64,000 nt of DNA from Syntrophales bacterium (GCA_963662405.2 CAXXKT010000002.1:288001-352000); one strand, 5' to 3'. Numbered from the stretch's first letter, positions 85 to 55,277 are shown. The notes: generated by a model from the sequence alone, not told the origin. Numbers and translations: made by a program.

Positions 85-385
85 TTGAGGTGTGTTATAC
101 AGAAACTATGTAATACTCTTTTCCGCGTTCACGTAACCCCGATATTTTCTAAGTTGCCCAAAAAAACAAAAAAGCCCCATCTCTCTTTTTGAGAAACAGG
201 GCTTTGATGATCAGACCATAATCCCCTCCGGTTACAGCCAGCCAAAAGCAGAGAAAAAATAAAGATCAAATCCGGTATTTAGGTAACTCTATGATGCTTT
301 ATTGTCAAGAAATTTTACGTCGAGACCTTCAACCGGTAATAATCGATTTTCTCCCAAGATTATTTTGAGTGTTAGTAGGTGAATC
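85..385 (-). repeat. Dispersed non-coding module, copy M1 (complete): palindrome, terminator, SD-AUG-GUC-UGA core, TTGACA block
   Basis: Terminator hairpin 171-205, TCAGACCAT 211-219, GTTACAGC 231-238, TAACTCTA 284-291, TGTCAA 303-308, GTAGGTG 375-381; aligns by eye with copies at 35.3, 37.5, 44.1, 47.7 and 55.2 kb. Confidence 0.85.
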
Positions 386-608
386 CAATAAATGATGACG
401 TCGAGAATGAGTTCGTCTTAAGCTCGCCGGAGGCGGCACCTACCCTTCTTATAAAAGATCAATCAATCTTTTTAAAACTACTCCATATATTTTAAAGGTT
501 AATTAAATATTGGCTTTTTATTTAATAAAACACTTTATTTTTATTTAATGATGATATATAATATAAATCAAAATAAATGGTATTCATTAAATATAGGAGG
601 GTTTGATT

Positions 609-1256
609 ATGGAAAGGAAAAAGAGAGTAAAAGCGGCCCCGGTAAAGACTATTGCCTATCTGCGGGTCAGCACCGATGCTCAGGATGTCGAAAAGAACAA
701 AGCTGATATTCTTTCCTTTGCCAATAGTAGAGCTTTTGTCCCGGTTGAATTTGTCACAGAAAAGATATCTGGTTCGAAGAATTGGAAGGAACGAAAAATC
801 AAAGGGATCATAGACCGGTTTAATAAAGGTGACCGATTGATCGTCCCTGAGTTGTCACGGCTGGGCAGGTCAATGTTGGAGATAATGGAGATACTGGCCA
901 TTGCGAAGGAAAAAGAGATTGCAATTTACGATCTGAAAAACGGCTGGACGTTAAACGGCACCATTGAAAGCAAGATCCTTGCGATGGTGTTTTCTATTGC
1001 CAGTGAGATCGAGCGTGACCTGATTCGGAAAAGAACAGGTGAGGGACTCAAGGCGGCAAAGGCTCGGGGGGTTGTTCTGGGACGGCCTAAAGGCCCCGGC
1101 AAGTCAAAGCTGGATCCCCACAAAGAAGAGATCGTTGCCCTCCTGAAGACCGGAAGCAAGAAGAATTACATTGCAAAGAAGTATTCCTGCACCCCGGCCA
1201 ATCTTTGGAACTGGTTGAAAAGAAATAACATTCAGGATATCAAACCTGAATTTTAA
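609..1256 (+). CDS. Small serine resolvase/invertase with C-terminal HTH
   Basis: YLRVST catalytic motif, ELSRLGRS, GRPKG, C-terminal HTH; AGGAGG before ATG 609. Confidence 0.93.
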   Translation: MERKKRVKAAPVKTIAYLRVSTDAQDVEKNKADILSFANSRAFVPVEFVTEKISGSKNWKERKIKGIIDRFNKGDRLIVPELSRLGRSMLEIMEILAIAKEKEIAIYDLKNGWTLNGTIESKILAMVFSIASEIERDLIRKRTGEGLKAAKARGVVLGRPKGPGKSKLDPHKEEIVALLKTGSKKNYIAKKYSCTPANLWNWLKRNNIQDIKPEF

Positions 1257-1362
1257 AAACTCAAGCAAGTTTTATATATTTTACCTAAATTTTACTTTAT
1301 TTATCAAACGGAACACTTTATAATCAAGGCAAATAAAAAAACCGTTAGCGGAGCCATGTCTT

Positions 1363-1542
1363 ATGAAAGGTGAAAGAATTACAATCAAAAAAGGGCTGGG
1401 CGAATTAAAGACCTGCACATTTTATCTGCCGGAAAAGGTGCACATGAGTGTGAAGGTTGCGGCTGCTCGTCGGGGGATTCCAATGTCACAGATTATGATC
1501 GACGCCCTCCTCTTGTACTTCGAGCAGAAAAGGCCAGAGTGA
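1363..1542 (+). CDS. Ribbon-helix-helix (CopG/ParG-like) protein, 59 aa, absent from the ORF track
   Basis: Manual translation MKGERITIKKGLGELKTCTFYLPEKVHMSVKVAAARRGIPMSQIMIDALLLYFEQKRPE; beta-strand then two helices pattern. Confidence 0.7.
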   Translation: MKGERITIKKGLGELKTCTFYLPEKVHMSVKVAAARRGIPMSQIMIDALLLYFEQKRPE

Positions 1543-1562
1543 ATAAGGGAGGATTTTTACGC

Positions 1563-3197
1563 ATGCGGTTTGCACCAATCATCAGAGTCAGCACTGAGGG
1601 TCAGGAAAGAAAAGGCGAGTCCCTCCGAACACAAACCACGCAGATTATGCAGTACGTCCAAAATCTAAAGGGAACTGTCCCGGAGCATTGCTTGCGGTAT
1701 GTTGGGCAGGAGCACGCGACCCCGAATCAAGAGCGGAGGAAGCTGGACAGCTTGCTTGAAGATTCTAGCAAGAATTTGTTTGATGCCGTTATCGTCTGTG
1801 ATGCTTCCAGATGGAGTCGGGATAATTTGAAAAGTAAGAAGGGATTGGAGATTCTGCGCAATAACAATATTCGGTTCTTTGTCGGAATGATGGAATATGA
1901 TCTTTTCAATCCGGAGCACAGCTTTTACCTGGGTATGTCTGCGGAGATAGGTGAATTGCAGGCACGGCAACAAAAACAAAAATCAATGATCAATAGGATC
2001 GAAAGGGCCAAACGTGGACTTCCCAGCGTCGGCAAGTTGCCTTACGGGCGCACATATGATTGCGACAAGGGATGGGGAATTGACTCGGACAAGCAAAAGA
2101 AGATCCAACAGGCGGCGGAACGCTACTTGCAAGGAGAGGGTATTGTGCAAATCTCTTCTTCCCTAGATATGAACGTTTCAAATCTCTGGAAAATCCTCAA
2201 CCACCGTTCTGGAGATAAATGGCAGCAGACATTCCGGGCACCGGATTTGAACATTGACGAGACGGTTGAAATATCAATCCCTCCCCTCCTTGATGAACAA
2301 ACGATTAATGCAATTTATGAACGTGCCAGAGCGAACAAAACCTATACCCACGGGGAAATCAAAAACCGCTACTTGCTGAGAAGAATGATCTTTTGCGCAA
2401 AGTGTGGGGGTGCTCTTTTTGGACAGACCAACCATCAAACAAAGAGGTATTACAGGCACACCCGCCACAAAAAGAACTGCACTTGTCATTTCCAGAGTTG
2501 GCTTCCGGCTGATTTGATTGAAAATTCAGTTTTGATTCACCTTATCGGTGCCTTTGGAGATGTGGAGAGGTTAAAGAAAGCGGTGGATCGGGCGACCCCT
2601 GACCTTGACAAACTGGACCGTCTAGCAGAGGAACAGGAAACCCTTGCAGGGGAATTGAAAAAGATTCTCTCCCGGAAAGAGCATGTCATTGATATGATCG
2701 AAGACGGGCTTCTCTCAAAAGAGGAAGTTAAACTACGTATGGAGAAACTACGGGAACGGGAAGCAAACATCCAAACTCGTTTGATGACTATCGAAGATCA
2801 GTTGGAGAGTGTCCCGGATCCTGCTAGAGTGAAGAGGCTATCCGAATTCGGTTTGGCGGTTCTTGTCAATGCGACAAAGAACAGCCCGCAGCTCATCTTC
2901 TCCAAGTCCTACGAATGGAAACGAAATCTGGTTGAGCATGCTTTCGGTGGCAAGGATACCAACGGCCAACGGCTCGGCGTGTACATTGAAGAAACCGGAG
3001 ATAGGAAACAGCCTTGGCGGTTTGAGATTCGGGGGTTACTCGAAAATACCCTAATTGGGTTGCCTCTCCCTGACGAATATTTGGAAGATGCTTTCCATTT
3101 GGACCCTGAATTTCAAGATATTCAGGAAGAGTTACAAAAGATTAGAAAAGCTATAACTAGTTTTACTTCGTATTACACAAAAGAAGCCCTTCCCTGA
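1563..3197 (+). CDS. Large serine recombinase (integrase)
   Basis: IRVST catalytic Ser, DASRWSR, PYG recombinase domain, CAKCG zinc ribbon, coiled coil; SD GGAGGA before ATG 1563. Confidence 0.93.
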
Positions 3198-3297
3198 TCC
3201 CGCTCTCCCGCAGGCACTCTTCCACCTGCAGCGTGATATTGACAAAACCCCTTCTCGAGGGGATGTTGAACCATAGTTCTTTCCTGTAACTTTTCAC
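3163..3297 (-). pseudogene. yjbQ: 5' fragment of yjbQ (UPF0047) truncated by the serine-recombinase element
   Basis: GTG-start translation [41 protein letters not shown] then TK-stop where YjbQ normally continues with a MHITA-type motif; SD AGGAG present. Confidence 0.8.
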
Positions 3298-3842
3298 TTG
3301 ATTCTCCTTTCGTGCGGCGGTGGAATACAATGAAGTTATCCTCTCCTACGCTTCTGCACGGGATCACACCGATTCGAACAGGATATAAAGAAATACGCGT
3401 TCTGGGGTCCCTGCTCAAGTCACGGCCTGTGCCTATAGTGGATGCTATAAAATAAACCACAGCCGGAACCGTTCTGTCAAAGATATTATGCCGGTGTGTT
3501 TCTCAGCCACATGCTGCATGATCGGTAGAACTCCTCTGAAACCTGTAACTGGTCCTCATACCTTCAAACTGATGTGACGCTCGTGCGCGGCATAGAAACG
3601 TATAACCTGTCCGGTCTTCCCGGATCGGAACCCGTAACGCTCACCCATAAAGCTTACACATCTCTGCTCCTATCGCTATCCGTCCCGGAGATCATTCCCC
3701 TGTGATTCATTTCCCCCGAAGAGACCCTGCGTTATCCATAGGTATTTTCGTATGATAATGATATTAAGATATTGTATTTTTTTATAACCTAAGTGTTGAG
3801 TCCCTCTGGTTTATCGCTATAAACGGATCAGTCGGAACAATA

Positions 3843-3871
3843 TTGACTTTCACAGCCCGGCTGGGTATAAG
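3843..3871 (+). promoter_or_regulatory. Sigma70-type promoter for the minD-like operon
   Basis: TTGACT-N17-TATAAG. Confidence 0.55.
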
Positions 3872-3885
3872 TTACTGAAAAGCTT

Positions 3886-4016
3886 GGCAGAGAAAGGGAC
3901 TCAGGCACCTTCGCTTCTGGAGTGTCTGTATTCGCCGTTGAGCGTACGCATCGATGGAGTAATCGCATTCCCTCTTTGGGAAAGGAGGTATTTTCCTACA
4001 TGCTCGATTCTCAGCA
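3886..4016 (+). promoter_or_regulatory. Candidate structured 5' leader, resembling a variant glycine-riboswitch aptamer
   Basis: GCAGAGAA/TTCTCAGC closing stem, CAGGCAC/GTGTCTG hairpin, CGCCG junction, GAGCGT/ATGCTC stem. Confidence 0.35.
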
Positions 4017-4083
4017 TCTTTTTGTGATATGATTCAGTAACTTTTGCCAATAGCTACAGATCTACGATCCGGGGTGTATCTCA

Positions 4084-4830
4084 ATGTCGAAAATTGTCTC
4101 TGTTCATTCCTTTCGCGGTGGAACCGGCAAGTCCAATACCACCGCCAACCTGGCCGTGTCTCTGGCCCACACGGGACTCCGGGTCTGCGTCGTCGATACG
4201 GACATACAGTCCCCCGGTATCCATGTCCTCTTCCAGATCGACCCCACGAATATCCCCTTCGCGTTGAATGATTTTCTCTGGGGGAAGTGCGAGATCGAGC
4301 AGACCGCGCAAGAGGTCTTTACCGGCGATCAGGGGGGACAGGTATTCCTGGTCCCCTCAAGCATGCGAACCGGCGACATTGCCCGCGTCTTGAAGTTCGG
4401 ATACGATATTCAACTCCTGCGCGATGGATTCATGCATCTCATCTCCGCCCTTGCCATCGATGTCCTCCTGATCGACACCCATCCGGGGTTGAATGAAGAG
4501 ACGCTGATGTCGATCGCCCTCTCTGACACACTGCTGATCATCCTCCGCCCTGATTCCCAGGACTACCAGGGAACGGCCGTGACCATCGAGGTGGCCCGTC
4601 AGATCGAGGTGCCCCGGATGTATCTCCTGATGAACAAGGTCCCTCCCCTCTTCGACCGGGCTTCGATTGTCGAAAAGGCCGAGGCGGCCTTCACCTGTCC
4701 CGTCGTCGGTGTGCTGCCCCATTCCGATGAGATGATGACGTTGGCCAGCGACGGGATATTCGTCACCCGGTATCCGCAGCACCGTCTCACACGCGAGGTC
4801 GGGATGGTCGCCCGGAAGCTCATGGAGTAA
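4084..4830 (+). CDS. MinD/ParA family ATPase
   Basis: SFRGGTGKS deviant Walker A, VVDTD, IDTHPG. Confidence 0.9.
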   Translation: MSKIVSVHSFRGGTGKSNTTANLAVSLAHTGLRVCVVDTDIQSPGIHVLFQIDPTNIPFALNDFLWGKCEIEQTAQEVFTGDQGGQVFLVPSSMRTGDIARVLKFGYDIQLLRDGFMHLISALAIDVLLIDTHPGLNEETLMSIALSDTLLIILRPDSQDYQGTAVTIEVARQIEVPRMYLLMNKVPPLFDRASIVEKAEAAFTCPVVGVLPHSDEMMTLASDGIFVTRYPQHRLTREVGMVARKLME

Positions 4831-4843
4831 GGAAAGACACGGC

Positions 4844-5914
4844 ATGAAGCTATCGAAGATCTCTCTTCCCCCGGGGATACGATTACCGGCCCTGGTCATT
4901 GCGGCCGCCGTGGTCTACGGGCTCCTCAACGTATATTCCAACCGGCTTCTCCTCCCGTCGGCGCCTGCTATCTCCCTCCGCCCCCAGGTCGCCCTCCCCT
5001 TCTGCCTGGGCTTTCTCTTCGGCCCGTGGGTGGGATTCCTTACCGGCGTTCTGGGGAATGTGCTCGGGGACGCTCTGTGCGGATACGGGCCTGTGTATTT
5101 CTGGAACTGGTCCCTGGCAAACGGTATCTACGGCCTCATACCGGGTCTCGCCCGCTCTCTCGGGCTCAAAGAGGTCCGCACGCTTTCGGGATTCGTCATC
5201 TTGGAGGCCGTTGTGGTCGTCTCGAATATCGCGGCCGTCGGGTCGGCTGTCCTGATCGATCTCTTCTGGCTGAAGATCATGCAATTCCCCGAATCGTTGC
5301 ATTCCTGGATACTACCGGCAGTAATTATCAATACGGTCCTCACCTTCGTCCTCGTGCCACTCCTGCTCACACTGGCCAGATTCATCGTGATGACCGTCGA
5401 GACACGTATCACGCAGGTCGTGTCATGGGTGGTGGTATCGATCGTCGTGATCGCCGCCTCGTCCGTGACGTGGGCCGTGTGGGGTGATCTCTCTTCACCT
5501 GCCGCAGCGGTCCGGGCGTTCTATTCGGCCGGTGTGGTCACGCTCCTGGTCGTAATCGCCGGATTTCTCGTCTCCGTTTTCCTGGCGCGCCGCATCACTG
5601 ATCCCCTGGCAACCCTGAGCCAGGCCGCCCGCCGGATCGAAAATGGCGAATACCATCTCCCCGCACTCGACACGCTGAAAGAGCGAAAAGACGAATTCGG
5701 GCAGCTATCCGTACTGATGCAACGCATGGCGCAACAGATCAAGGAGCGGGAAACCGGCCTGAGGAATCAGGTAGCCGAACTGAAGATCGAAATCGACCGG
5801 GTAAAACAGGACGAGGATGTGAGGGAGATCGTGGAGAGCGATTACTTCAAGACACTCAGGCAGAAGGCGCGCGAATTCCGTGCCGTGCCCGAGACGAAAG
5901 GGAGAAAGAAATAG
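4844..5914 (+). CDS. Membrane protein: ECF S-component-like domain + HAMP + coiled-coil tail
   Basis: LRP..FGPWVGFLTG..GN.LGD S-component pattern; ITDPL..L...A..I..G...DEFGQL HAMP; tail IEIDRVKQDEDVREIVESDYF. Confidence 0.75.
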   Translation: MKLSKISLPPGIRLPALVIAAAVVYGLLNVYSNRLLLPSAPAISLRPQVALPFCLGFLFGPWVGFLTGVLGNVLGDALCGYGPVYFWNWSLANGIYGLIPGLARSLGLKEVRTLSGFVILEAVVVVSNIAAVGSAVLIDLFWLKIMQFPESLHSWILPAVIINTVLTFVLVPLLLTLARFIVMTVETRITQVVSWVVVSIVVIAASSVTWAVWGDLSSPAAAVRAFYSAGVVTLLVVIAGFLVSVFLARRITDPLATLSQAARRIENGEYHLPALDTLKERKDEFGQLSVLMQRMAQQIKERETGLRNQVAELKIEIDRVKQDEDVREIVESDYFKTLRQKAREFRAVPETKGRKK

Positions 5915-9528: not shown

Positions 9529-9534
9529 TCAAAT

Positions 9535-9580
9535 TGGTAGCGGGGGCCGGATTCGAACCGAGGACCTTTGGGTTATGAGC
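9535..9580 (-). repeat. Duplicated 3' 46 bp of tRNA-fMet (att-like)
   Basis: Matches 11868-11913 with one mismatch. Confidence 0.92.
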
Positions 9581-11300: not shown

Positions 11301-11867
11301 AATTTTCCCCCATTTTTCTTAGATAGATTGAATAGAAAGTCGACTACCCCCACTCCATGAAAGATGTTTCGTTGGAGCTCAGTAATAAGCCCCGTTTCTC
11401 CAACCGACAGCATATCTCCCGGGCATATCTCCCGGCATCCTGAGATCCCGACTAGACTAAGGATATTAAAAGACTACGGTCGCGTTGAAAGCGCTCTTTC
11501 TTCGACACCTCCTTTCCCGTCTTTTCGATACGACACTCTTGATGAGTGCAAAAACCATGAAGTGCTGAGAATAATATTAGAAAAAGGGCCTTAATGAGAC
11601 CAGCAGCCCAAAAAGAAAATGCAATCCCCATACGAACGCATTTTAACAGAAAAATTAACTTTATTGAGGTTGTCATGTCAAGAAATATTATCTCCCCAGA
11701 GCGGGAAGAATCCATGCGGGAATGCTGGAGCAAGAAGGTGCCTGTTTCCCAATTTCAAATGTTCAATCAGGTGAATCCTGGCGCGGACAGCCAGAATCTC
11801 GGGCACAACCTACCATAGTCTTATAAAAAAAGAGGCTAGCCGATAGTAGCTAACCTCTTTATCGTAT

Positions 11868-11944
<77 letters not shown>

Positions 11945-35321: not shown

Positions 35322-35430
35322 TTGACAATCCGTCATGATAGAGTTAACGGGGTAATAGCTTTGATCTTGGCGTTTTTTTCTACTTATGAGCGGCTGTAAC
35401 CAATGGAGGGGATTATGGTCTGATCGTCAA
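35322..35430 (+). repeat. Non-coding module copy M2 (opposite orientation, no terminator)
   Basis: TTGACA-N11-TAGAGTTA ... GCTGTAACC ... GGAGGGGATTATGGTCTGATC. Confidence 0.85.
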
Positions 35431-35927: not shown

Positions 35928-37223
35928 TCATTCTCCCTGGCGCACCCCCCCCAGATACGCGATCTTCCCGTCGTTCTGGAACTGTACTATCGGGATAATC
36001 AGAGCGCCGGGGAGATTTTTATTTAAGGGATCAGAAAGATCCGCTCTGACCTTGGAGTGGAAGTAAGGTTTCACCCGCTCTTGCACGTAGGCCATCTTGC
36101 CGATCGAAAAGGTGGTCTGTGTCGTCTCCATCGCCTTGATCAGCTTGTCGATATCATCGACACCCCCCGCGGTCTCGATCACTTTCTTGATGAAATAGAT
36201 ATCCGCGTATGCAAGGTGAACGTGAATCTGGGCCGGGATACCATGTTTGGCGGCCAGCTCCACAAAGGGGATGGTCTTGTCCGTCAGCGGGATCCGGCAC
36301 TCGGTAAAGAGGGCAGAAACACCCAAACATTTCCCGCCGGTCAATTTCCAGAAATCGGCAGTCTGCGAGACACCGCCGGTGAAATCAATGGGGATATCGC
36401 GCGCGGCCGAATCGGCCCACTGCTTGACGAAGGATTCCGTGTCGGTAAACCAGGAACTTGTGTAAAGGATATTCTGAGCCCCCGAGCTGGCGATCTGCTG
36501 GAGGAGGGGCAGGTACATCGTCCCCCTCGGTTTGACTGTCTTGCTGTAGACGACCTTGATATCGAATTCTTTCTCAAGCATATCCTCGAAGGAAGGCGCG
36601 CCCAATTCGGGAATACCCTCTCGATACGCCTTGGTCCACTCAAGATCCTCATAGAGAATAGCGATTTTTTTTAAGCCGTTGGGAAATCGCTGTGGCCATG
36701 TTGTTCCCCAGAAATATCTCATCATGGGGTAATATGTCGAATCCGTAATCCAGTCACGAAAACAGAACTTGTATCTCTCGTAGTCGTCGGCGATCCGGTT
36801 GGTCAGCTCCATCCCCTGAGCACCGTTAAAGATCAGAATGTGCGGGTAGTCCTTGAACATAGCCGCTCCGTTCTCCTGAGCGGCGAGACAGATCTCCGTT
36901 CTTCCCTCAACGAAGATGAACTTCGCCTTCTCTTCCATCAGTAGGCGGCGTGTCCCCTCAACTGTCAGAGAGGTCGCGCCTTTATTGTCAGCTATGGCAT
37001 ACTTCAAGGGTCTTCCGAGAACCCCGCCGGCCTCGTTGATCTCTTGGACTGCGAGCTTCTGGATGGCCATGCAGGGCCTCGTACCCGGCGAGAGCACCAT
37101 TCCCGCGTACCCGATCACGATCGGTTCTCCCGACGGTGCGGCACCCATGCCAGTCAACGGAAAGCAGAACGTCAGTGCAAGCGCAGCCACAACAAACAAC
37201 TTCAATTCAGATCTTCTGGTCAT
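35928..37223 (-). CDS. Orphan ABC substrate-binding protein (branched-chain/LivJ-like), probably frameshifted near the C-terminus
   Basis: Signal peptide, AVQEINEAGGVLGRP; G8 tract at 35945-35952 with an alternative frame running to 35855. Confidence 0.85.
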   Translation of the reverse strand: MTRRSELKLFVVAALALTFCFPLTGMGAAPSGEPIVIGYAGMVLSPGTRPCMAIQKLAVQEINEAGGVLGRPLKYAIADNKGATSLTVEGTRRLLMEEKAKFIFVEGRTEICLAAQENGAAMFKDYPHILIFNGAQGMELTNRIADDYERYKFCFRDWITDSTYYPMMRYFWGTTWPQRFPNGLKKIAILYEDLEWTKAYREGIPELGAPSFEDMLEKEFDIKVVYSKTVKPRGTMYLPLLQQIASSGAQNILYTSSWFTDTESFVKQWADSAARDIPIDFTGGVSQTADFWKLTGGKCLGVSALFTECRIPLTDKTIPFVELAAKHGIPAQIHVHLAYADIYFIKKVIETAGGVDDIDKLIKAMETTQTTFSIGKMAYVQERVKPYFHSKVRADLSDPLNKNLPGALIIPIVQFQNDGKIAYLGGVRQGE

Positions 37224-37418: not shown

Positions 37419-37661
37419 GGGATGTCATACAAATCCGCATGGCACTCATTTGTTTGCTTTGGCGACTGCAAGTATTAAGATGTTCACGAAAAATCGAAAG
37501 CCCCATCTCTCATTTTTGAGAAACAGGGCTTTGGATGATCAGGCCATAATCCCCCCAAGTTACAGATGTTCACAAGTAAACAATAACGTGAAAATCAAAA
37601 CCGCTAAACGCTTAACTCTATGACAAGACTTTGTCAAGCAATTTTCAGCGAGACTTTCAAG
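37419..37661 (-). repeat. Non-coding module copy M3
   Basis: Terminator 37497-37532, TCAGGCCAT 37539-37547, TGTCAA 37632-37637, GAGACTTTCAA 37650-37660. Confidence 0.88.
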
Positions 37662-39097: not shown

Positions 39098-39633
39098 TCA
39101 ACTACCCTCGACTATAAGTCGAGGGGTTATGACGGGTCGATTGAAAATCGACTGTCGTCAACTATCGGCTCCCCTTCTTGCTCTTGAATATATTGCGCTA
39201 TCATCTCGTCAGTTATATTACCGGAACTGACAGCAAGGTATCCTCGCGCCCAAAGATGCCTGCCCCAAAATTGCTTCTTTAAATGAGGAAATTCGGATAA
39301 TAGCACCCGCGAGCTTATCCCCTTCAACCATTGAACAATCTTGCTGATATCCAGATTAGGCCGATATAAAATGAACATGTGCACATGGTCGCTCGCTACT
39401 TTTCCGGTAATGATGTCAAGCTCATGCTCAAAAGCAATTTGGCGCAGAACATCTCGCGCGCGATTTGCTACTGGACCCGTTAATACTTGCTTTCGGTATT
39501 TCGGTATCCAAACAAGATGTACCTTTAAATCCGTTTTTGTATGAGCCCCAATTTGATAACGTCGCATAGCGACAGATATAAACTTTTCTTCGCCTAAAGG
39601 CGAGGGATTTCAACCATCCCCGAGGGAGACATT
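39098..39633 (-). mobile_element. IS200-type element
   Basis: tnpA flanked by hairpins CCCTCGACTATAAGTCGAGGG and TCGCCTAAAGGCGA; left boundary approximate. Confidence 0.8.
39127..39567 (-). CDS. tnpA: IS200/IS605 Y1 transposase
   Basis: HLVWIPKYR, DHVH HUH motif, LKGISSR, LWARGY, YIQEQ. Confidence 0.95.
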   Translation of the reverse strand: MRRYQIGAHTKTDLKVHLVWIPKYRKQVLTGPVANRARDVLRQIAFEHELDIITGKVASDHVHMFILYRPNLDISKIVQWLKGISSRVLLSEFPHLKKQFWGRHLWARGYLAVSSGNITDEMIAQYIQEQEGEPIVDDSRFSIDPS

Positions 39634-39640
39634 AAAAAAA

Positions 39641-40376
39641 GGGTCTTGACTAGAACAGCGGTTTATTTTTGAAGTTCTTTAACAACAATTTATAGATATC
39701 GGTGTTACGGTTGTTGAACCGGAACTCACATTCCTTGAGATGCAGGTAAAAGGTTGATTGTGGAATACCATGGAACTTCATCAGCCTCCGTTTTGCGAAT
39801 GACCAGAAGGATTCAATGCCATTGATGTGGCTTTTCCCCCTGGCAAATTCATTGGCTCCGTGATGAACACGGTAATGCTTTTTGTATCCCAAGTCAACCA
39901 AACCATCATAGCCTCTCCAACTATCTGAATGTATGACACTATTCGGTTCAACTTTGCCCCTGATAATGGCCTGGAGAGTCTTCCTGGCGCAATCGGGAAC
40001 GATTTCGGTATAGACACTGCCTTTTCGTTGCAGGATACCGAATACAGGGGTTTTTCTCCCGGCCCCACGGCCTCGTTTCCCTTTGATACGTTTTGCACCG
40101 AAATATGATTCGTCAACCTCGATTTCACCCTGAAATGGTGATTCTTCTTCGCACAGATCAGCTATACGTTGACGAATCAAAGACAGATATCGATTCACCG
40201 TATTTCTATTGAGTTTTGTTAAAAGAGCGATGGTTTGAGCATCCAAATCGAAGGCAAAATACTTCACGATCTCTCTAAATTTTGCCTCTGAAATTTTGGA
40301 ATTTTTTACATACTTGTTACTTATTGACATGACTAGACTCTTAACATATTTCCGTGTGCTGTTCTAGTCAAGACCC
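39641..40376 (-). mobile_element. IS1595 family element (IS1016-like size)
   Basis: Perfect 19-bp terminal IRs GGGTCTTGACTAGAACAGC; 736 bp; no matching TSD. Confidence 0.92.
39650..40330 (-). CDS. IS1595 family transposase
   Basis: EVDESYFG, HSDSWRGY, INGIESFW, ECEFRFN. Confidence 0.95.
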   Translation of the reverse strand: MSISNKYVKNSKISEAKFREIVKYFAFDLDAQTIALLTKLNRNTVNRYLSLIRQRIADLCEEESPFQGEIEVDESYFGAKRIKGKRGRGAGRKTPVFGILQRKGSVYTEIVPDCARKTLQAIIRGKVEPNSVIHSDSWRGYDGLVDLGYKKHYRVHHGANEFARGKSHINGIESFWSFAKRRLMKFHGIPQSTFYLHLKECEFRFNNRNTDIYKLLLKNFKNKPLF

Positions 40377-40389
40377 TTGTTTTATTAAA

Positions 40390-40460
40390 GCAGCCGTTTA
40401 TTGGTCGAATTCATTCGACGCGGCTGCTGAACCCCTCGACTTATAGTCGAGGGTAGTTCA
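40390..40460 (+). mobile_element. Orphan IS200/IS605 right end with an upstream hairpin
   Basis: 40430-40460 is the inverse of 39098-39128 (30/31); GCAGCCG/CGGCTGC hairpin upstream. Confidence 0.75.
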
Positions 40461-44009: not shown

Positions 44010-44044
44010 ATCAAAAGTAAGTCAATAAAACATGGTTAAGTTCT

Positions 44045-44142
44045 CAATTCTATTACGGGATTTTGTCAAGAACTATTACGGTGAGACTTTAAAGCGGCAA
44101 TCATCGATTTTCTTTTGGAATCATCCTCAGCGGTAGTAGGTG
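44045..44142 (-). repeat. Non-coding module copy M4 (upstream block only)
   Basis: TGTCAAG 44064, GAGACTTT 44083, ATCGATTTTC, GTAGGTG 44136-44142. Confidence 0.75.
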
Positions 44143-44238
44143 CAACGTGTGAGATTTGGTGCAGCAGGAGCAGAGCTCGTATGTTGCTACGTTCTTCTTC
44201 CTGTACTCCTTGGAACTCGCATAATCGAAGGTATGAAA

Positions 44239-44358
44239 GACTTCAAATACAAGTAATCGCCACAATTCGTCAGCCAACCTTATCGAATGCGGGTTGAAAG
44301 ATGCACAACTCGGGCTGCACATTCTAGGTTCATGTAGATTATCTGCTTCTTCCTGAAA
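44239..44358. repeat. 120-bp direct repeat, copy 1
   Basis: Four mismatches versus 49259-49378. Confidence 0.93.
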
Positions 44359-47556: not shown

Positions 47557-47575
47557 TGCTAACAATAAATAAGCA
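47557..47575 (-). other. Candidate attI-like simple site
   Basis: TGCTTAT-TTATT-GTTAGCA: degenerate L box, 5-bp spacer and R box directly before the first cassette gene. Confidence 0.4.
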
Positions 47576-47593
47576 GTTTTCTGTTATTTATAA

Positions 47594-47851
47594 GAGGATG
47601 TTATACGGAAACCATATAACATCATTTTCTCCGATTTACTGATTGCAATATTGTTCTAATCTTTCCACAAAAAACAAAAGCCCCATCTCTCATTTTGAGA
47701 AACAGGGCTTTAGATGATCAGACCATAATCCCCTCCCGTGGTTACAGCTGTTCACAAGCGCATTCAATACAAGCAATTTCAATGAAACATATTGACTCAC
47801 TAACTCCATGATCTTGTTATGTCAAGAAATTTTACCGTGAGAATTTCAAAT
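47594..47851 (-). repeat. Non-coding module copy M5 (continues at 49117-49166 after IS3)
   Basis: GATGTTATA/TATAACATC palindrome, terminator 47677-47711, TCAGACCAT 47718-47726, TGTCAA 47820-47825. Confidence 0.88.
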
Positions 47852-47881
47852 TGATCTTGCCCCGAAAAAGTGGACACCCCA

Positions 47882-48730
47882 CTAAGTTACACACGCTTTT
47901 CGTTCAAACTCAGCGGGAGAGCAATAATTCAATGATGAATGTCTTCTAACGCAATTATAGAAAACTTCGATATATTCGAATATGCTCCCGCGAGCTTCCT
48001 GTCTTGTCTGATACTTCTCAAAATAAACAAGCTCCGTCTTTAAGGTATGGAAAAACGATTCCATAAGAGCATTGTCGTAACAATTCCCCGAAGAGTTCAT
48101 GCTCTGAATAAAACCATATTTCTCCATCAGCCCCTGAAAAGCATAGCTGGTATATTGAGTTCCACGATCTGAATGAAACATAACACCAGCTTTGGGTCGC
48201 CGCTGCCTGATCGCCTTGTGCAAGGCATCTGCAAGAATCTTATGACTCAATCTGTTATCCATCGACCATCCAATAATCTTACGATTGAAAACATCCAGGA
48301 TCGCTGCCAGATAAAGCCAACCCTCTCTCGTCCAAATAAGGGTAATATCAGAAACCCACACCTTGTTGGCCACATCTGTCGAAAATCTCCGATTTAAAAG
48401 ATTATCCGCCACTAAAAACTCATGCTTGGATTTTTTGGTGGCCTTGAACCTGCGTTTCGTCTTTGCCTTAATCCCATGACTCTTCATCAGGTGAGCCACT
48501 CGTTTCCTGCTACACTTAATCCCGTGGGCCTGAAGTTCCGCTGTCACCCTCGGGCTACCATATGTGCCGCGACCCTTTATGAAAGCGTCCCGAATATACA
48601 TCAGCAACCGCTCATTCTCTCTCTGGCGGTCACTCTTGCTGTGTTTCCCCCATATGTAATAACCGCTCCTGGATACCCCCAGCACTCGGCACATCTTCTT
48701 CACCGAAAATTCGGAACGGTGATTTTCCAT
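47882..48730 (-). CDS. IS3 OrfB (DDE transposase)
   Basis: WVSDIT, HSDRGTQY, DNALMESF. Confidence 0.95.
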   Translation of the reverse strand: MENHRSEFSVKKMCRVLGVSRSGYYIWGKHSKSDRQRENERLLMYIRDAFIKGRGTYGSPRVTAELQAHGIKCSRKRVAHLMKSHGIKAKTKRRFKATKKSKHEFLVADNLLNRRFSTDVANKVWVSDITLIWTREGWLYLAAILDVFNRKIIGWSMDNRLSHKILADALHKAIRQRRPKAGVMFHSDRGTQYTSYAFQGLMEKYGFIQSMNSSGNCYDNALMESFFHTLKTELVYFEKYQTRQEARGSIFEYIEVFYNCVRRHSSLNYCSPAEFERKACVT

Positions 48731-48741
48731 GAACTCATACT

Positions 48742-49044
48742 TTACTTTGGGTGTTTCGAGAAGATGGCCAACGCTTTTTTTAAGATTTCCCTCTCCTCCC
48801 TTAAGCTCTCATTCTCCCGCCGCAACCGACGAAGTTCCTCCTCAGGTGCCTTCAAATGACCTTTCCCGGGAAAAGCTTGCTCCATGTCCGCCCGATATTT
48901 ACGCCTCCACTGATGAAGCAGGTTTTTATGAACATTCAAATCCTTAGCTAGATCACTTACAGAACGTTTACCTTCATCCATTAACCGAATCGCCTCATAC
49001 TTAAACTCCCGATCAAAATACCGCTTATCCTTCCCATTAACCAT
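48742..49044 (-). CDS. IS3 OrfA
   Basis: FDREFK.EA HTH, leucine zipper, ILKKA. Confidence 0.9.
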   Translation of the reverse strand: MVNGKDKRYFDREFKYEAIRLMDEGKRSVSDLAKDLNVHKNLLHQWRRKYRADMEQAFPGKGHLKAPEEELRRLRRENESLREEREILKKALAIFSKHPK

Positions 49045-49258
49045 GACATGCCTCCTCGTTACTCTATGTCTATAAGAGAAACTCTTCGGTATGTCCACTA
49101 AATCGGGGGAAGACCAAATGGTAATGAATGATTTTTCTCTGCGATTGTTTTGAGTGTTTGTAGGTGGCGTCAATAACCGACACTCTGGCATTTTCCTTTA
49201 TCCTGCCTGAACAGTACGGATTGAAAGCCAAGCCGCGAATCCATTTCCCACATTTATT

Positions 49259-49378
49259 GACTACAAATACAAGTCATCACCACAATTCGTCAGCCAACCT
49301 TATCGAATGCGGGTTGAAAGATGCACAACTCGGGCTGCACATTCTAGGTTCATGTAGATTATCTGCTCCTTCCTGAAA
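49259..49378. repeat. 120-bp direct repeat, copy 2
   Basis: Four mismatches versus 44239-44358. Confidence 0.93.
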
Positions 49379-50070: not shown

Positions 50071-50217
50071 CCAAATAATCTTATCGTCAATTTCCACCGT
50101 TGAGACCAATAATCCTTCTCCCAGTATCCCTCGCTCATCCCAATATATCTTACTTAAAAAAACCCAATTTTCGCCTTTAACGTTCCGCTCGTGTTTGTCT
50201 TGATAAGATTCACTGCT

Positions 50218-50520
50218 TCACTTAACGAATATCTCGGCGGTATCACCATTAGGTATGTGAACATTGTCAACATCGATCCCTATCGCTTTGTACTCCCACT
50301 CAGGATAATACTTTCGTACCTCGCAAAATTTGGTTTCCAAATACTGGCGATCTCCCTTGATAAAGATTTCTCGCCTAAACCTCGTGGTCCACGCTATACG
50401 GTATTGTGTCCGGTAAACTGTATGTGCTGACTTCCTCAGCCTCATACAGTCTCTATATCAAAGTGCCCAGAAGATACAGGATACGGCTCTCACCCCCGCC
50501 CTCACGGACGGGGAAGTCCT
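50218..50520 (-). pseudogene. IS200 tnpA remnant with end hairpin
   Basis: AHTVYRTQYRIAWTTRFRR, DNVH; hairpin CCCCG..CGGGG near 50492-50514. Confidence 0.75.
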
Positions 50521-50619
50521 GCTAAATTAGATTTCTACGAACTTCCCTCTCTTTCATGGGAGAGGTCCCCCTCCTCATGTTAATCAGAAACAGTCACGTA
50601 CCGCCTCAGGAGTTCAGCA

Positions 50620-51855
50620 TTACTCCTCAGCAGGCTGAGCAATAGCTTTCAGCAACATGGAAGCCGCCGCGTCGATAACGTAGGCCATGCCATAGTATCG
50701 GCCGGGACGAGAATGAAACCACCGAAGCATCATGTGACTGAAACCTCCGAAAAAGAGGTTCTTGAAAACACGATTACTGATATCGGGTCGAAAATTACCA
50801 TCTTTTTTCCCTTCCTCCAGGATACGATCTATGATTTCAAGGTAGCGTAGAAAATCATCGTAGGCACGGGACTGATAGAAACGTTCATTGTAGACCCCTG
50901 CAGATATAAAGGTCTTCAGAAAAGCAGGGTGTTTCAGATAGAAGAAGAAGTGCTCCCGCACAAACCGTTCGAGCTTCTCCGCAGGGGTTCGCATTATAAA
51001 AAATTCATCCATGGATTGCAGGTGCTCGTTGAACCGGTGCCGGAGCGTGGAAAAAAGGATGTCTTCTTTATTTTTAAAATATTCGTAGAGCGTTGCCTCG
51101 GCAACCTCAGCAGAACGTGCAATTTCCATGGTTGTCGTTTTCAAATACCCCCCTTCAGCAAAGTGCTTCTCGGCGGCATCTAGAATACTCGCTTCTTTCC
51201 CTCGCTTTTTCCGGTTCCCTTTTTCGTCGGGTACCATCATGGGCAGCACCAGGTCCAGAATATCATCAAAATCAGTCTGGAAGCATCCTTCTCTCCGACC
51301 TGAAAAAACCTGGATGTTTTCCATATCGAGGAGCCCCAGTATAATCGCATTCGCCACTGGGATGGAAATCTCTTTTGAAAAGGTCCCCTCCGACACCCCA
51401 TCCTCGATAATTGAATTTAGAATTCTGAGCCACTGGATGAACGGGGCCGATGCCTCATGTTGAAAAAAGGCGGAATCAGCACGGCACTCGAAGATAGTAA
51501 ATCTAGCATACTGTGGGTGATCTTCATGGTAAAAGAGTTGAAACCAGATTAGTTTGCTCAAGCGACTAACGGGTTCGCGAATACCCTGGAGCTGGTATTC
51601 AAGGTCCGCCATCATTTTTTTCAACAATTCTCCAACGGCATAAAATAGAAGATCCCTTTTGTTTTTAAAATAATGATAGATGATTGAATCCTTCACCCCT
51701 GCAGAAGCGGCGATTTCCGAAATGGTCGTTTCGGTCCCTTTCTGAGCCAACAAAATGACAGCGGCGTCTAGTATCTGCTTCTTTGTTCCAGTAATCACCC
51801 TTGTTCCTTCCGTATCCATATTGATAATCTCGTACTGAATGGTTTCTATTATCAA
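50620..51855 (-). CDS. Tandem double-TetR transcriptional regulator
   Basis: Two TetR HTH domains (ILDAA...YHYFKNK and ILDAA...YEYFKNK). Confidence 0.9.
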   Translation of the reverse strand: MIIETIQYEIINMDTEGTRVITGTKKQILDAAVILLAQKGTETTISEIAASAGVKDSIIYHYFKNKRDLLFYAVGELLKKMMADLEYQLQGIREPVSRLSKLIWFQLFYHEDHPQYARFTIFECRADSAFFQHEASAPFIQWLRILNSIIEDGVSEGTFSKEISIPVANAIILGLLDMENIQVFSGRREGCFQTDFDDILDLVLPMMVPDEKGNRKKRGKEASILDAAEKHFAEGGYLKTTTMEIARSAEVAEATLYEYFKNKEDILFSTLRHRFNEHLQSMDEFFIMRTPAEKLERFVREHFFFYLKHPAFLKTFISAGVYNERFYQSRAYDDFLRYLEIIDRILEEGKKDGNFRPDISNRVFKNLFFGGFSHMMLRWFHSRPGRYYGMAYVIDAAASMLLKAIAQPAEE

Positions 51856-51949
51856 ATTTAGTTACATTCAGTAATTCCCGGTTAAGTCTTTGCATATAAG
51901 TTTTGAGTATTTGGTTCTTTTACGTTTTTTACAGTATCGGGGTCTGCAG

Positions 51950-51983
51950 GCATTCATCCACGGGTAAACCCGTGGTATTCTGT
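51950..51983 (+). mobile_element. Solo IS200/IS605-type end hairpin
   Basis: GCATTCATCCACGGGTAAACCCGTGGTATTCTG; pattern recognition only. Confidence 0.45.
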
Positions 51984-52482
51984 TTACGACCGCATAAAAT
52001 AACCGATCATTTTTAAACATTATTTGCCAATTCAATACGCAATTTCCAAACCGTAAATTACTATGATTCACTATTATTATTCAAATAAAGAAGCAAGATT
52101 AAATTTTACCAAACCCTCCTTTCTGTTCGTAATTATATGTACAACTAATAATATTAAATAGATAAGAGGATATAATGATATCTTGACTACCACAAGCAAA
52201 TTATGATAGTTGAATCTTATTCTGTTTTATAATAAATAAGAGTTGTATTAATATTGATATTGGCAAAAAATCTCTCGCCAATGCATTACTTCATTAGATC
52301 GTCGTTTGAAGAAGCACAATAATTTGATGCAATATTATAATGTTAGATATATTATCGATACAATAACAAATTATAAATAATCGGCATCATGTTTCAACGG
52401 AGAATTAGTCTTCTTGATATTTCCTTATTTAATAGGTCTATAACTGTAAAAATCAAACCACAAAAAGGAGGATTAAATACAA

Positions 52483-54453
52483 ATGAAGAAAATGTGGAAG
52501 GTATTGCATCGGGGGATCGGGTACGTCGGGTTTCTGATCGTCCTGGTATGGGGGCTTGCACTCTTTACCGGTTGCGGGAGCGGGAGCAGTGCCGGGAAAG
52601 CGCCGTCAACGGGTACGTTCACGGACAGCCCGGTCTCGGGGCTCGACTATCAAACCACCTACTGCTCGGGGACGACCGATGAGAGTGGGACGTTTAACTA
52701 TTACCACGGTGAAACGATCGCCTTTTCCGTGGGGGGCGTTTCTCTCGGCTCAGCAGCGGCCCAAGAAACGGTCACACCCTTTGATCTCGTTCCTGGAGCG
52801 GGGAACACGGCGAATGTGGCAGTGGTCAATATCTGCCGTTTCCTGCAGACGCTTGATGCCGACGGCAATCTTATCAATGGGATTCAGATCACCGCGGCGA
52901 TTATTGCGGTTATCGAGGACTACGTAGCGGCGAATCCCGGGCTTGCTCTTGATTTCAGTGATACGGCCGGTTTTGAGACTGAGATGACAGGACCTGGGGG
53001 GATCCTCGCGCAGTTGAACGCGGCGAATGTCTTTACGGAGAACAGCGCCGGCGTCGATCGTGTAATCCGAAGTTCTTATCAAGCCTGGCTGCACTTCGAG
53101 GATTCAAGGAACTGGTACACTGACGGATCGATCGATTATTCCTTCAGACCCGTTGTGTTCGTTCACGGAGGTTCCGGCTCGGCATCCCAGTTTGAGTCCC
53201 AGGCTCAGCGGTTCATAGCCAACGGCTATCCCCGAGCCTATCTTGCCGCCTACGACCACGATACCGGGGGAGCGGGTCCGGAAGAGAATGCGCCCATAAC
53301 CAATGCTGCTCTGAATGAGATCATCGACGGTCTCCTGAAGATGTCAGGCGCCGATAAGGTTGACCTTATCGCGCATTCTCGGGGCGCCGGGGTATCTTTT
53401 TATTACCTGGAAGACTCACCCGAGAATGCCGCAAAGGTTGCTCACTATGTGGCCGTGGACAGTCAAACAGGATTGGATTTGACCACAGGGATGACTCGTA
53501 CACCGGGCAATGTCGATATGCTTGCCCTATGGGGAGAAGGAGACCCCACGCGTGAGGTGGCTGCGGCTACGAACGTCTATATCCCTACCCAGGCGCACAT
53601 CGAGATGTGTACAGCTGCCGCATCCTTCGACGAAATGTATCGATTTTTCAACGGCGAAGATCCCGCAACTAATCAAATCGTGCCCGAGACGGGGGATCAG
53701 GTATGGATTGCCGGGGAAGTCAATTATTTTCCCGAAAACGTTGGAGCAGTCGGAACTCTGGAGATATACGAGGTTGACAGTGAAACCGGTTTCCGGGTCG
53801 CCGATGAACCAGTGAGTACATGGACCATCGGCGAGGACGGGGCATGGGGACCGGTACGGGTGAACAAAACCGCTACGTACGAGTTCGCCTTCGCGCATGC
53901 TGCGGGAGGGAACCACTACTTCTATCGTGAGGCATTTTCCGCAAGTAACTATTTTATTCGTCTCAATACATCTCCTCCCGGGGGGGGCATCGGTCTCTTG
54001 TTGACTCAAAGCCCAAACCACACCAATATCCTGGTCTCACGGGACAGGGAGATGTGGGGTGATCAGGGGGGCAACAGCGACATTCTGATGGTAGACGGAA
54101 ACAGCGTGGCCACCCCAGAAGCGGCTCCGCGAGCGAAACGGTTGTCCGCCCTGTTTCTATTGGATTGGGGGTATGGCGGTCACGCACACCTAGGCAATCC
54201 TTACCCAGCGGTATTTTACGGTACCCATGTGCTTGGTCAGAGTGATCTGTCAGCCCCCATTCCGATCTTTCACAGCCTAGGATTCATGTCCGGCCTTGAC
54301 CTCTATATGCCAGGGGCCACTCCTCCGAACCGGACGATACCAGTTGTGCTTACGCCCCGGGGCGGTGGTGGCGCAACGCAAACAATTAATATTCCTAACT
54401 GGGCTTCAAGTAATGTCAGAATAACGGCTGTTTTCAGAGATTTCGTTCCATAA
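52483..54453 (+). CDS. Lipoprotein alpha/beta-hydrolase (lipase-like) with extra N- and C-terminal domains
   Basis: LFTGC lipobox, RPVVFVHG, AHSRG nucleophile; recalls the Archaeoglobus-type lipase architecture. Confidence 0.8.
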   Translation: MKKMWKVLHRGIGYVGFLIVLVWGLALFTGCGSGSSAGKAPSTGTFTDSPVSGLDYQTTYCSGTTDESGTFNYYHGETIAFSVGGVSLGSAAAQETVTPFDLVPGAGNTANVAVVNICRFLQTLDADGNLINGIQITAAIIAVIEDYVAANPGLALDFSDTAGFETEMTGPGGILAQLNAANVFTENSAGVDRVIRSSYQAWLHFEDSRNWYTDGSIDYSFRPVVFVHGGSGSASQFESQAQRFIANGYPRAYLAAYDHDTGGAGPEENAPITNAALNEIIDGLLKMSGADKVDLIAHSRGAGVSFYYLEDSPENAAKVAHYVAVDSQTGLDLTTGMTRTPGNVDMLALWGEGDPTREVAAATNVYIPTQAHIEMCTAAASFDEMYRFFNGEDPATNQIVPETGDQVWIAGEVNYFPENVGAVGTLEIYEVDSETGFRVADEPVSTWTIGEDGAWGPVRVNKTATYEFAFAHAAGGNHYFYREAFSASNYFIRLNTSPPGGGIGLLLTQSPNHTNILVSRDREMWGDQGGNSDILMVDGNSVATPEAAPRAKRLSALFLLDWGYGGHAHLGNPYPAVFYGTHVLGQSDLSAPIPIFHSLGFMSGLDLYMPGATPPNRTIPVVLTPRGGGGATQTINIPNWASSNVRITAVFRDFVP

Positions 54454-54488
54454 AGAGATGTGAAACACACCAGTTTAATCTCCTCGCC

Positions 54489-54520
54489 AAAGGGGTTGCT
54501 CGAAAGGGCAGCCCCTTTTT
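54489..54520 (+). terminator. Intrinsic terminator
   Basis: AAAGGGGTTGCTC-GAAA-GGGCAGCCCCTTTTT. Confidence 0.85.
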
Positions 54521-54940
54521 AATAACAAATAATCACAGGACATGAAAACAGGGAAAATATTTCGGGCAACAAGACAAACAAGACACCTCATTACCGATTG
54601 TATACCATGCCACGCCACTACCTTCTCTTTGACTGAACAACGGCACGCACCAGCAGGGAGACCGTCGCATCGATCTCCTCGATGAGACTCTGCTGCGCAC
54701 AGTCTTTCAGATACAGCATATGGATCGTGGAGACGCTAGAAGGCACCAAGGAGAAGATTCCTTATAACATGGGGCTCTATGCAGGTCAAAAGATCCAGTT
54801 TTTACCCTCTGCAAAGGTCAGATCAATTTCCTGCAGAGATTTTCGAAAATTCTCATAGGCGGCAGTTTCATAAAACTGGATATTATTGCTTGCGTGATTC
54901 AATACTTCTAATTTAGGGTATTGTGTGTCATGTTCTTTGT

Positions 54941-55181
54941 ATGGAAAAGACAGATGCACGTAAAATCAGTAAAAAACATACAGTATACCCTGCGCAAGCA
55001 GAGAGTTCGGCTTCGTAAGCAAGAGAAGTCTAATCAAGAAATTGTCCGGATTGTTGGTGCCACAGAGCGCTATGCCATCAAGATTTGGCAGCAGTATGTA
55101 CGGGAAAGTAGCGAGTCTCTCAAGTTTGGACAAGGAGGTCACCGTAACAGTGTTTATCGCAAGCTGGTGAAGGGCTTTTAG
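54941..55181 (+). pseudogene. IS630-like transposase N-terminal remnant
   Basis: MEKTDARKI... then frameshifted QYTLRKQ.VRLR HTH. Confidence 0.5.
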
Positions 55182-55277
55182 CTAACTCTAAAAAGGCGCT
55201 TTGTCAAGAGATAGTGCAATGAGACTTTCAAATGGTAATGAGTTATTTTCCCATGAGATTGTTTTAAGGAGTAGTAG
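55181..55277 (-). repeat. Non-coding module copy M6 (upstream block, cut by IS110)
   Basis: TAACTCTA 55183, TGTCAAG 55202, GAGACTTTCAAATGGTAATGA, GTAG. Confidence 0.8.

Follow-up and report, generated by a model that had tools for sequence, protein, structure and literature searches.

A recurrent leader ahead of acquired genes in a Syntrophales bacterium, a candidate portable attenuator gated by translation initiation

INTRODUCTION

A non-coding module that joins a promoter, a minimal open reading frame (ORF) and an intrinsic terminator recurs along a 64,000-nucleotide stretch of DNA from a Syntrophales bacterium (GCA_963662405.2 CAXXKT010000002.1:288001-352000; hereafter, the window) and across the genome from which it comes. 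On our best reading, the module would work most like the attenuator of Escherichia coli ampC, with no sequence homology claimed between the two. In both, a short leader carries a minimal ORF that immediately precedes an intrinsic terminator; in the K-12 ampC sequence, ATG TAA stands a few bases before the stem. Jaurin et al. are said to have found in 1981 that ribosome binding at this start-stop relieves termination. ampC is single-copy, its leader measures about 40 nt, and it has neither a Shine-Dalgarno (SD) sequence nor a sequestering hairpin, whereas the module hides its SD in a hairpin that we call P1, has one sense codon and a 15-bp terminator stem, and stands in dozens of copies before unrelated accessory genes. 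The accessible text on ampC describes a weak promoter combined with an attenuator that is strong, which together give low, growth-rate-dependent expression (PMC3033074, PMC3660660, PMC9241650). The pyrBI leader, pyrL, offers a second likeness to our reading, as there a ribosome blocks the terminator hairpin directly and the peptide sequence is unimportant; as in pyrL, the ORF runs into the terminator in 8 of 29 distant copies of the module. pyrL is 135 bp long, with U-rich pause sites that sense UTP, in the accessible part of PMC4824070.

Other described systems resemble the module in being portable. The available text on the PeSL cassettes of T4-type phages depicts a repeated sigma-70 promoter and stem-loop before ORFans of variable regions, with recombination shuffling the genes (PMC2839356). 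The PeSL stem-loops described there, placed within or ahead of the promoter, stop transcription arriving from upstream, whereas the module terminator lies about 75 nt downstream and stops its own transcript; moreover, the module is chromosomal and gave no match in phage and plasmid collections. Putative mobile promoters (PMC3575422) and "mobile attenuators" (PMC2965389) are, like the module, homologous non-coding regulators before non-homologous genes. As the accessible parts of those papers present them, they are mostly pairs at about 92% identity or exapted insertion sequence (IS) terminators, unlike the module, which forms a large, old family (65% median identity) with its own promoter, SD, start codon and P1 and is not the end of any IS seen. 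The integron Pc-attI region has a promoter that drives cassettes, and ORF-11 and ORF-17 near attI1 affect cassette expression, ORF-11 by enhancing translation; the available text describes no terminator between Pc and attI (PMC8876359). The module differs from that description in having a terminator between promoter and attI, and 45 of 52 copies have no attI by pattern. In layout, the module matches none of PeSL, mobile promoters and mobile attenuators as the accessible parts of their sources describe them. A literature search found no description of the element; subscription journals were mostly outside that search, and supplements could hold an unnamed motif. This is a real, selected family of cis-regulatory cassettes that has apparently not been described.

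RESULTS

The module has a constant set of parts in a constant order, is constrained as RNA of one strand, and is co-oriented with unrelated cargo. Judging from this arrangement, the unit may well be a portable transcription attenuator gated by translation initiation and placed ahead of acquired genes. A profile built from the source genome's own copies (77 segments at E<=0.01) detected 67 segments genome-wide at E<1e-3 after removal of antisense hairpin self-hits, a number that supersedes the six copies counted in an earlier note on the window. A covariance model of the RNA part gave 49 genome matches at E<1e-3 among 65 listed. The window segments named in the earlier note are real: all were recovered at their positions and strands, far beyond chance (59-224 bits), with a score of only 20 bits (E 3.5e-4) for the short fragment at 49117-49166. 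The view that the module belongs to no known family also held, as searches of Rfam at gathering and E-value thresholds returned tRNAs only. The best weak match was NsiR1, at 28 bits against a threshold of 39, and both it and Yfr10 reflect the terminator.

The terminator is the best-conserved part of the unit. Its 15-bp stem was paired in 97.9% of cells across 42 copies, and its G-U pairs exist on the module strand only. Folding energies on the module strand and the opposite strand were -36.2 versus -22.2 and -40.1 versus -23.2 kcal/mol, which bears out the earlier observation of a hairpin fully paired on one strand only. Folding the transcript as it would be before the terminator 3′ arm exists revealed P1, a recurrent imperfect hairpin that was not among the features of the earlier note. 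It pairs the GCUU..UGA.CAGCUGUAACC block with the GG.A.UUAUGG.U.CUG.A.UCA block, taking in SD and AUG, with the purine-rich SD in and beside its loop. Terminator, promoter and upstream block served to choose 84 copies, in which 92.2% of 1510 P1 cells were paired, compared with 31-43% for slid controls, and 7 cells carried double changes, a number reached in 4 of 500 shuffles. One pair showed clear compensation (A-U 76, G-U 9, G-C 5, A-C none; 92 of 96 copies parsed), and transitions giving G-U outnumbered those giving A-C by 65 to 21 at equal site numbers. The claim of selection on an RNA of this strand was supported by the terminator G-U pairs and by G-U-biased and compensatory changes in a second hairpin. 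P1 and the terminator can coexist, except for the 4-bp base of P1; this and the single, variable sense codon set the leader apart from a trpL-type attenuator, with its run of control codons and its alternative 1:2/2:3/3:4 hairpins. Nor does it have the layout of integron attC repeats, which are imperfect RYYYAAC...GTTRRRY palindromes behind each gene: the unit stands ahead of genes, its fold consists of P1 and the terminator, and the attI-like sites are separate from it and lie downstream.

Upstream, the motif CTTGACA did not vary across 42 copies, and the promoter reads TTGACA-N17-TA, with TA at spacer positions 18-19 in 90-91 of 93 copies. Among 686 intergenic TTGACA sites outside the module, spacing peaked at 16-18 nt (38, 70 and 31 sites), versus 12 sites at 11 nt. 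The 11-nt spacer proposed earlier was ruled out by this genome-wide spacing and by the conserved TA at 17 nt. The module -10 element lacks the last T, like both rRNA promoters (source genome C1:1300300-1300630), and the genome encodes CarD, which activates promoters with such -10 elements in other bacteria. Some order-level relatives, all of one family (L434-L439), carry the leader behind another conserved promoter-like motif (GTAGATTTC...GTGAT) instead of TTGAC-N17-TA. A LexA box in the leader was considered and rejected, as no LexA scored above the family cut-off in the genome and the near-palindrome is explained by P1 pairing. The absence of LexA above cut-off concerns a genome rated 100% complete, and umuD-like genes adjoin several module copies. 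Two leader blocks resemble what we take to be the rrn boxA of the source genome; both differ from it at core positions, and the second is explained by P1.

The mini-ORF reads Met-X-stop. The ORF played no part in selecting 96 unique copies, for which terminator, promoter and upstream block were used; among them, ATG was kept in 93 and a stop at codon 3 in 85, and positions 1 and 2 of codon 2 were the least conserved of the 19-nt block (0.90 and 0.83). The leader spans about 75 nt, and the terminator starts 5-6 nt past the mini-ORF stop. Met-X-stop preceded 33 of 60 module terminators and 14 of 939 others (shuffles, 11.9 +/- 3.3). The first subfamily and a second one have only the stretch from ATG through the hairpin in common, and the 3′ half is conserved in sequence across families. 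Two protein-level readings were discarded: TGA as a selenocysteine codon, because no conserved frame follows it and relatives have TAA or TAG, and a conserved small protein on either strand (lipoprotein-like or a toxin ORF), because frame-breaking indels lie between the blocks.

Distant relatives were compared next to the background of other terminators. Of 25 phylum-level matches, 17 had SD and start, and 11 had an upstream promoter, all 11 among the 17; for 436 other terminators of the source genome, the corresponding numbers were 53, 20 and, for both together, 3. Because the promoter lies outside the covariance model, only the promoter count is fully independent. SD and start were found 12-26 nt before the stem in 29 of all 46 distant matches, with a mode of 18 nt (11 at exactly 18). 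The start codons were ATG (22), TTG (5, three of which arise from the script taking a later codon) and GTG (2); the stops were TGA (11), TAA (8) and TAG (2), the remaining 8 ORFs running into the stem. Peptides included M, MD, MV, MEE, MKR and MVGDF. The long P1 is lost in distant relatives, which keep SD and start at the same distance from the stem. Their SD was paired upstream more often than in shuffled sequences (0.76 versus 0.61; 23 of 29), whereas real genes gave 0.42 versus 0.43 (73 of 150). The best reading of this pattern is that the position of a start codon from which a ribosome would cover the stem, rather than the peptide sequence, is what is conserved.

The module is a cis-acting 5′ leader. 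Orientation was counted with plain ORFs, since gene calling missed AT-rich genes: the first long ORF after the terminator lay on the same strand for 44 of 52 terminator-bearing copies, compared with 222 of 400 control points, and several of the 8 exceptions had an IS or a short same-strand gene next. Downstream genes often begin 30-130 nt past the U-tract. Forty of 48 downstream ORFs were scanned, and 23 had Pfam families of many kinds, including five GGDEF or HD-GYP proteins, surface proteins, transporters and nucleases. PADLOC was run on 24 of those 40 ORFs, picked mainly as having no obvious metabolic role, and matched 10, among them ThsB (2e-111), GajA (1e-224) and PD-Lambda-5A (6e-133). 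The others were PDC-S31, PDC-M14A, Ppl-like, Mrr-like, kinase and HNH nuclease matches, and one HD match was spurious. Three cassette proteins of the window had no PADLOC match. The guanine-plus-cytosine (GC) content of the downstream 2 kb fell under the genome's lower quartile for 41 of 67 segments, so that the earlier statement of confinement to accessory DNA applies broadly, not strictly. A tRNA lay within 25 kb of 33 of 67 segments, little more than the fraction of 0.39 expected at random.

Taken as an attenuator gated by translation initiation, the module has a promoter, a short leader and an intrinsic terminator upstream of a co-oriented gene, an SD and start about 18 nt before the first C of the stem, and a stop 5-6 nt before the hairpin. 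By default, P1 would bar ribosomes, the terminator would form, a 110-120-nt RNA would be released and cargo expression would stay low. Ribosome loading on the mini-ORF before the polymerase quits the U-tract would cover the base of the terminator stem, and transcription would then pass into the cargo. The peptide would be irrelevant, and the start codon position would be what matters. Loading might be favoured by the availability of ribosomes or the growth rate, by stalled ribosomes, by temperature or through an RNA-binding protein. In the accessible part of PMC4824070, a stop codon 5 bp before an E. coli terminator lowered termination from about 90% to under 10%, in a translation-dependent manner.

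Several observations weigh against this reading. According to the same accessible text, terminators in the first 100 bp of a coding region usually escape repression by the ribosome unless a pause couples the two machines (PMC4824070); that start-proximal terminators usually still work fits a leader that is off by default, but it is also the main objection. In the module, unlike pyrL, the start codon stands about 18 nt ahead of the stem, and neither a pause site nor a link to a metabolite was seen. Conservation of the stop codon (0.93, 0.95 and 0.98) was no better than that of its flanks (0.93-0.99). The stop was lost in 11 of 96 copies, most often to CGA (5) and to TAA only once, and all five TGA-to-CGA changes were compensated in P1, so structure outweighs the stop there. 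P1 itself had double changes in only 3 of 18 pairs, a number matched by 218 of 500 shuffles; in truncated leaders, it folded no better than shuffles (z +0.1 to +1.3), and RNAalifold did not predict it. The 21 order-level matches were weaker than the phylum-level ones, with SD and start in 11, a promoter in 5 and both in 1. Finally, the covariance model favours purine-rich-plus-ATG and paired hits, so that counts of distant matches are partly circular, and the relatives are not independent.

The first alternative is a protein-gated antiterminator of the BglG/SacY ribonucleic antiterminator (RAT) type, in which a protein bound to the conserved internal loops of P1 would stabilise the 4-bp base and open the bottom of the terminator, the AUG being incidental. 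P1 looks the part: it is weak, it has internal loops and unpaired A residues that are conserved, and 4 bp of it overlap the 5′ arm of the terminator. RAT elements have that overlap geometry. The compensation in P1 of changes that break the stop fits such a reading, and the source genome holds a csrA-like gene (signature match) and one NusG paralogue, the latter with no such leader in front. However, no CAT_RBD protein was found in the source genome (the control matched in 4 of 14), of all parts of P1, the overlapping base helix is conserved least (89.9% paired, with 15 breaks at one pair), and relatives without the long P1 still keep SD and start in place. A search of the source genome for ANTAR gave no match, although its control had no match anywhere either. 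We consider a RAT-type switch unlikely.

The 110-120-nt terminated transcript might instead act in trans as a multi-copy small RNA, for example, an antitoxin, a CsrA sponge or an antisense RNA. It would have its own promoter and terminator, it is structured, and the conservation of its 3′ half across families would suit that role. However, the strong co-orientation with genes that often start shortly after the U-tract, the lack of a conserved partner gene on either side when flanking genes were compared, and the free sequence after the start codon in distant relatives make it a rather improbable explanation. A free-standing small RNA as main function, as first suggested, was not supported: a co-oriented gene nearly always follows the unit, and what distant relatives conserve is a translation start placed ahead of the terminator, not a seed. 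A short transcript of about 110-120 nt is still the predicted product wherever termination occurs.

It is similarly improbable, in our estimation, that the unit is an unregulated damper or insulator, in which a promoter and a leaky terminator would fix cargo expression at a low level and block read-through from upstream, with the mini-ORF and P1 tuning the leak. The cargo is functionally mixed, which implies no single ligand, the terminator is the best-conserved part, and kinetics in the accessible part of PMC4824070 speak against tight coupling. Nevertheless, a sequestered SD and a start kept at a fixed 15-21 nt across families exceed what a fixed leak needs.

We also considered how the family is distributed and how it spreads. 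Homologues were found beyond this genome, within the family and, more weakly, across Desulfobacterota. Within the family, BLAST with copy 1 matched 18 of 24 genomes, and in the order's other families 1 of 16; of 21 exact-core matches among GTDB genomes, 19 were titled Syntrophales, Syntrophaceae or Deltaproteobacteria. The covariance model matched 45 of 101 order-level and 19 of 151 phylum-level genomes; the source genome is counted in both, and many of the hits are weak. Viral contigs gave 2 hits, identical in the sequence shown. A tree was built from 42 copies. Of the 22 from the source genome, 14 formed one clade (99/99) and 8 mixed with copies of relatives, which indicates an old family with lineage-specific expansion. 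Pairwise identity among 24 long copies had a median of 65% and a maximum of 85%. Neighbouring copies within 15 kb shared orientation in 25 of 31 pairs.

Exchange of cargo in the manner of PeSL may be reflected in one clear mosaic pair and in upstream DNA that copies with different cargo have in common. Copy 1 and the copy at source genome C1:2673144 were alike at 27-33 of 40 bases in the 5′ part and at 36-40 of 40 from ATG to attI, and diverged just after the attI GTT, a mosaic such as recombination between copies predicts. Three copies had a common 1.0-1.2 kb upstream and different downstream DNA. Three copies with different cargo (C1:121805, 299486 and 1938503) were preceded by a 78-amino-acid ORF and, upstream of it, a nuclease-like gene; with an HU/IHF-like gene also present at two of these loci, this is a shared island backbone. 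Copies would spread with islands and through recombination between co-oriented copies. No mini-circles were found in contigs of three runs of one sample, joints with short sides at repeats not being counted.

The 5′ CACCTAC is an insertion hot-spot. IS110, IS3 and an element with dual tyrosine recombinases insert in the 5′ part of the module, and the last of these and a 215-bp unit end at CACCTAC. All five full-length IS110 copies (window 55276-56515; source genome C1:158542, 164030, 305113 and 1415774) start in CACCT and end TATCT|AC, followed in four by a recognised module 5′ segment. From these junctions, the IS110 family is a candidate bridge-RNA element that targets this conserved non-coding module. 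The 215-bp unit, which runs from CAGGAAG to CACCTAC and is non-coding, occurs at four places at 99% identity and in partial copies, in the window at 49161-49378 and 44239-44358, and is probably a young non-autonomous element.

Despite the co-oriented clusters, the single clade of own copies, two mosaic copies and the insertions in the 5′ part, it is highly improbable that the module is the end or attachment site of an undescribed mobile element (like a miniature inverted-repeat transposable element, MITE, or a recombination platform) with promoter and terminator as passengers, since no terminal inverted repeats, target duplications or fixed ends were seen around the unit (profile starts vary from position 2 to 186), copies are far from near-identical as those of a MITE or IS end would be, the RNA strand is constrained, and the resolvase and large serine recombinase of the window are single-copy in the genome, leaving the module with no dedicated recombinase. 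From the suggestion of a cargo-element end or recombination platform, there remain the frequent position at the head of attI sites, the 5′ hot-spot and the mosaic pair.

attI-like sites were found by pattern within 400 nt of 7 of the 52 copies, and 5 of 7 strict attI-like sites had a module copy at most 200 nt upstream. The attI-proximal segment also lies just 3′ of the source genome's broken intI and of the intI genes of relatives; this position and the exact divergence of the near-identical pair after GTT support its reading as attI. The palindrome once listed as a module part follows only two of the six window copies and belongs to this segment. A strict scan of two regions for attC found none. 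The source genome has one intact and one frameshifted intI (C1:2211990-2212934 and C1:30608-31553; L001, L002), each of which has an attI-like site in the same orientation beyond its 3′ end and is preceded by a distant version of the leader (promoter, SD, ATG AAC TAA or ATG ATC TGA, terminator). A general intI leader was rejected, as the module profile found no match (0 of 29) among intI loci in other Syntrophales. An attI-like 67-bp repeat was seen at one compared locus.

The features of the window are listed in Table 1. Three of its six copies, at 85-385, 37419-37661 and 47594-47851, are complete; that at 35322 ends before the terminator hairpin, and those at 44045 and 55181 end just past the promoter. 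The segments at 47594-47851 and 49117-49166 are a single copy split by an IS3 element. The attI crossover of copy 1 falls outside the window, about 45 bp ahead of its first position, and an HNH-nuclease gene comes after it. Copy 2 stands after tRNA-Arg/tRNA-Lys and before a probable integrase remnant, copy 3 is followed by a gene for a periplasmic binding protein (35928-37223), and the attI-like segment behind copy 5 by a run of cassette-like genes in the same orientation that extends to 44962, with attC-like remnants.

Table 1. Module copies and associated features in the window
Feature	Position	Strand
Copy 1, CACCTAC, 5′ boundary motif and insertion hot-spot	375..381	-
Copy 1, conserved upstream block	322-332	-
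Copy 1, sigma-70-type promoter, 17-nt spacer, -10 without last T	-35 303-308; -10 280-285	-
Copy 1, weak hairpin P1 hiding SD and AUG; 4-bp base overlaps terminator 5′ arm	201..249	-
Copy 1, SD GGAGG (225-229) and mini-ORF ATG GTC TGA (211-219)	211..229	-
Copy 1, intrinsic terminator, 15-bp stem with G-U pairs (171-205), and U-tract	157..205	-
attI-proximal segment after copy 1, with palindrome (93-116)	1..116	-
Copy 2, without terminator: promoter, P1, mini-ORF (35415-35423)	35322..35430	+
Copy 3, complete: -35 (37632-37637), mini-ORF ATG GCC TGA (37539-37547), terminator (37497-37532)	37490..37661	-
Copy 4, ends past promoter (-35 44064-44069); CAGGAAG...CACCTAC spacer before it (44136-44203)	44030..44203	-
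Copy 5: promoter (-35 47820-47825), P1 (47707-47759), mini-ORF (47718-47726), terminator (47677-47711)	47670..47851	-
Short attI-like segment after copy 5: palindrome (47599-47621), probable crossover GTT (47561-47563)	47561..47621	-
IS3-family element in copy 5, between 5′ segment and promoter (approximate ends); 3-bp ATT duplication	47852..49116	-
Copy 5, displaced 5′ segment, CACCTAC (49160-49166)	49117..49166	-
Copy 6, ends past promoter (-35 55202-55207)	55181..55277	-
IS110-family element at CT of the copy 6 CACCTAC motif	55276..56515	-

Other features of the window were noted. Its small serine resolvase, a 59-amino-acid ORF and the large serine recombinase (603-3197, together with source genome C2:283000-288000), a single-copy set, border a low-GC island; it is on the module-attI platform of this island that the HNH nuclease gene is found. 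A 48-bp duplication of the tRNA-Met 3′ end (9533-9580 and 11866-11913) surrounds a 2.3-kb insert with a carboxylesterase gene and no integrase, a small tRNA islet. At 39100-40458, a perfect 29-bp inverted repeat bounds an IS1595-family element (39633-40384) and an IS200-like transposase. Short tandem and inverted TTGGACCAC repeats at 62148-62360, near a CHC2 zinc-finger gene and a methylase, are possibly iterons or the origin of a phage-like element.

DISCUSSION

Defence genes newly acquired by bacteria are often toxic, and how they are held in check while staying available for use is an open question, to which the usual answers are DNA-binding silencers or system-specific repressors. The leader described here, if it acts as an attenuator gated by translation initiation, would be a different answer, a minimal RNA switch. 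About 50 copies of it stand in one genome, and what they precede includes Thoeris-, Gabija-, PD-Lambda-5- and nuclease-like genes, as well as genes for c-di-GMP enzymes and integrase-less attI arrays.

A bolder proposal, which goes further beyond the sequences and which we put forward only tentatively, is that Desulfobacterota possess a widespread, undescribed family of plug-in "translation-state valves". Made of a sequestered SD, a start codon and a terminator, these would leave any acquired gene, or an entire integron array that lacks an integrase, silent by default until one global cue opens them together, such as ribosome stalling or surplus in phage attack or a growth shift. Such a family might amount to an RNA-only regulon for foreign DNA, its members spreading through recombination between copies and serving IS110 and dual-recombinase elements as a landing pad.

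Start-proximal, ribosome-controlled termination is known mainly from the single case of ampC, and the module would add hundreds of natural variants of it, in uncultured syntrophs whose gene regulation is barely described.

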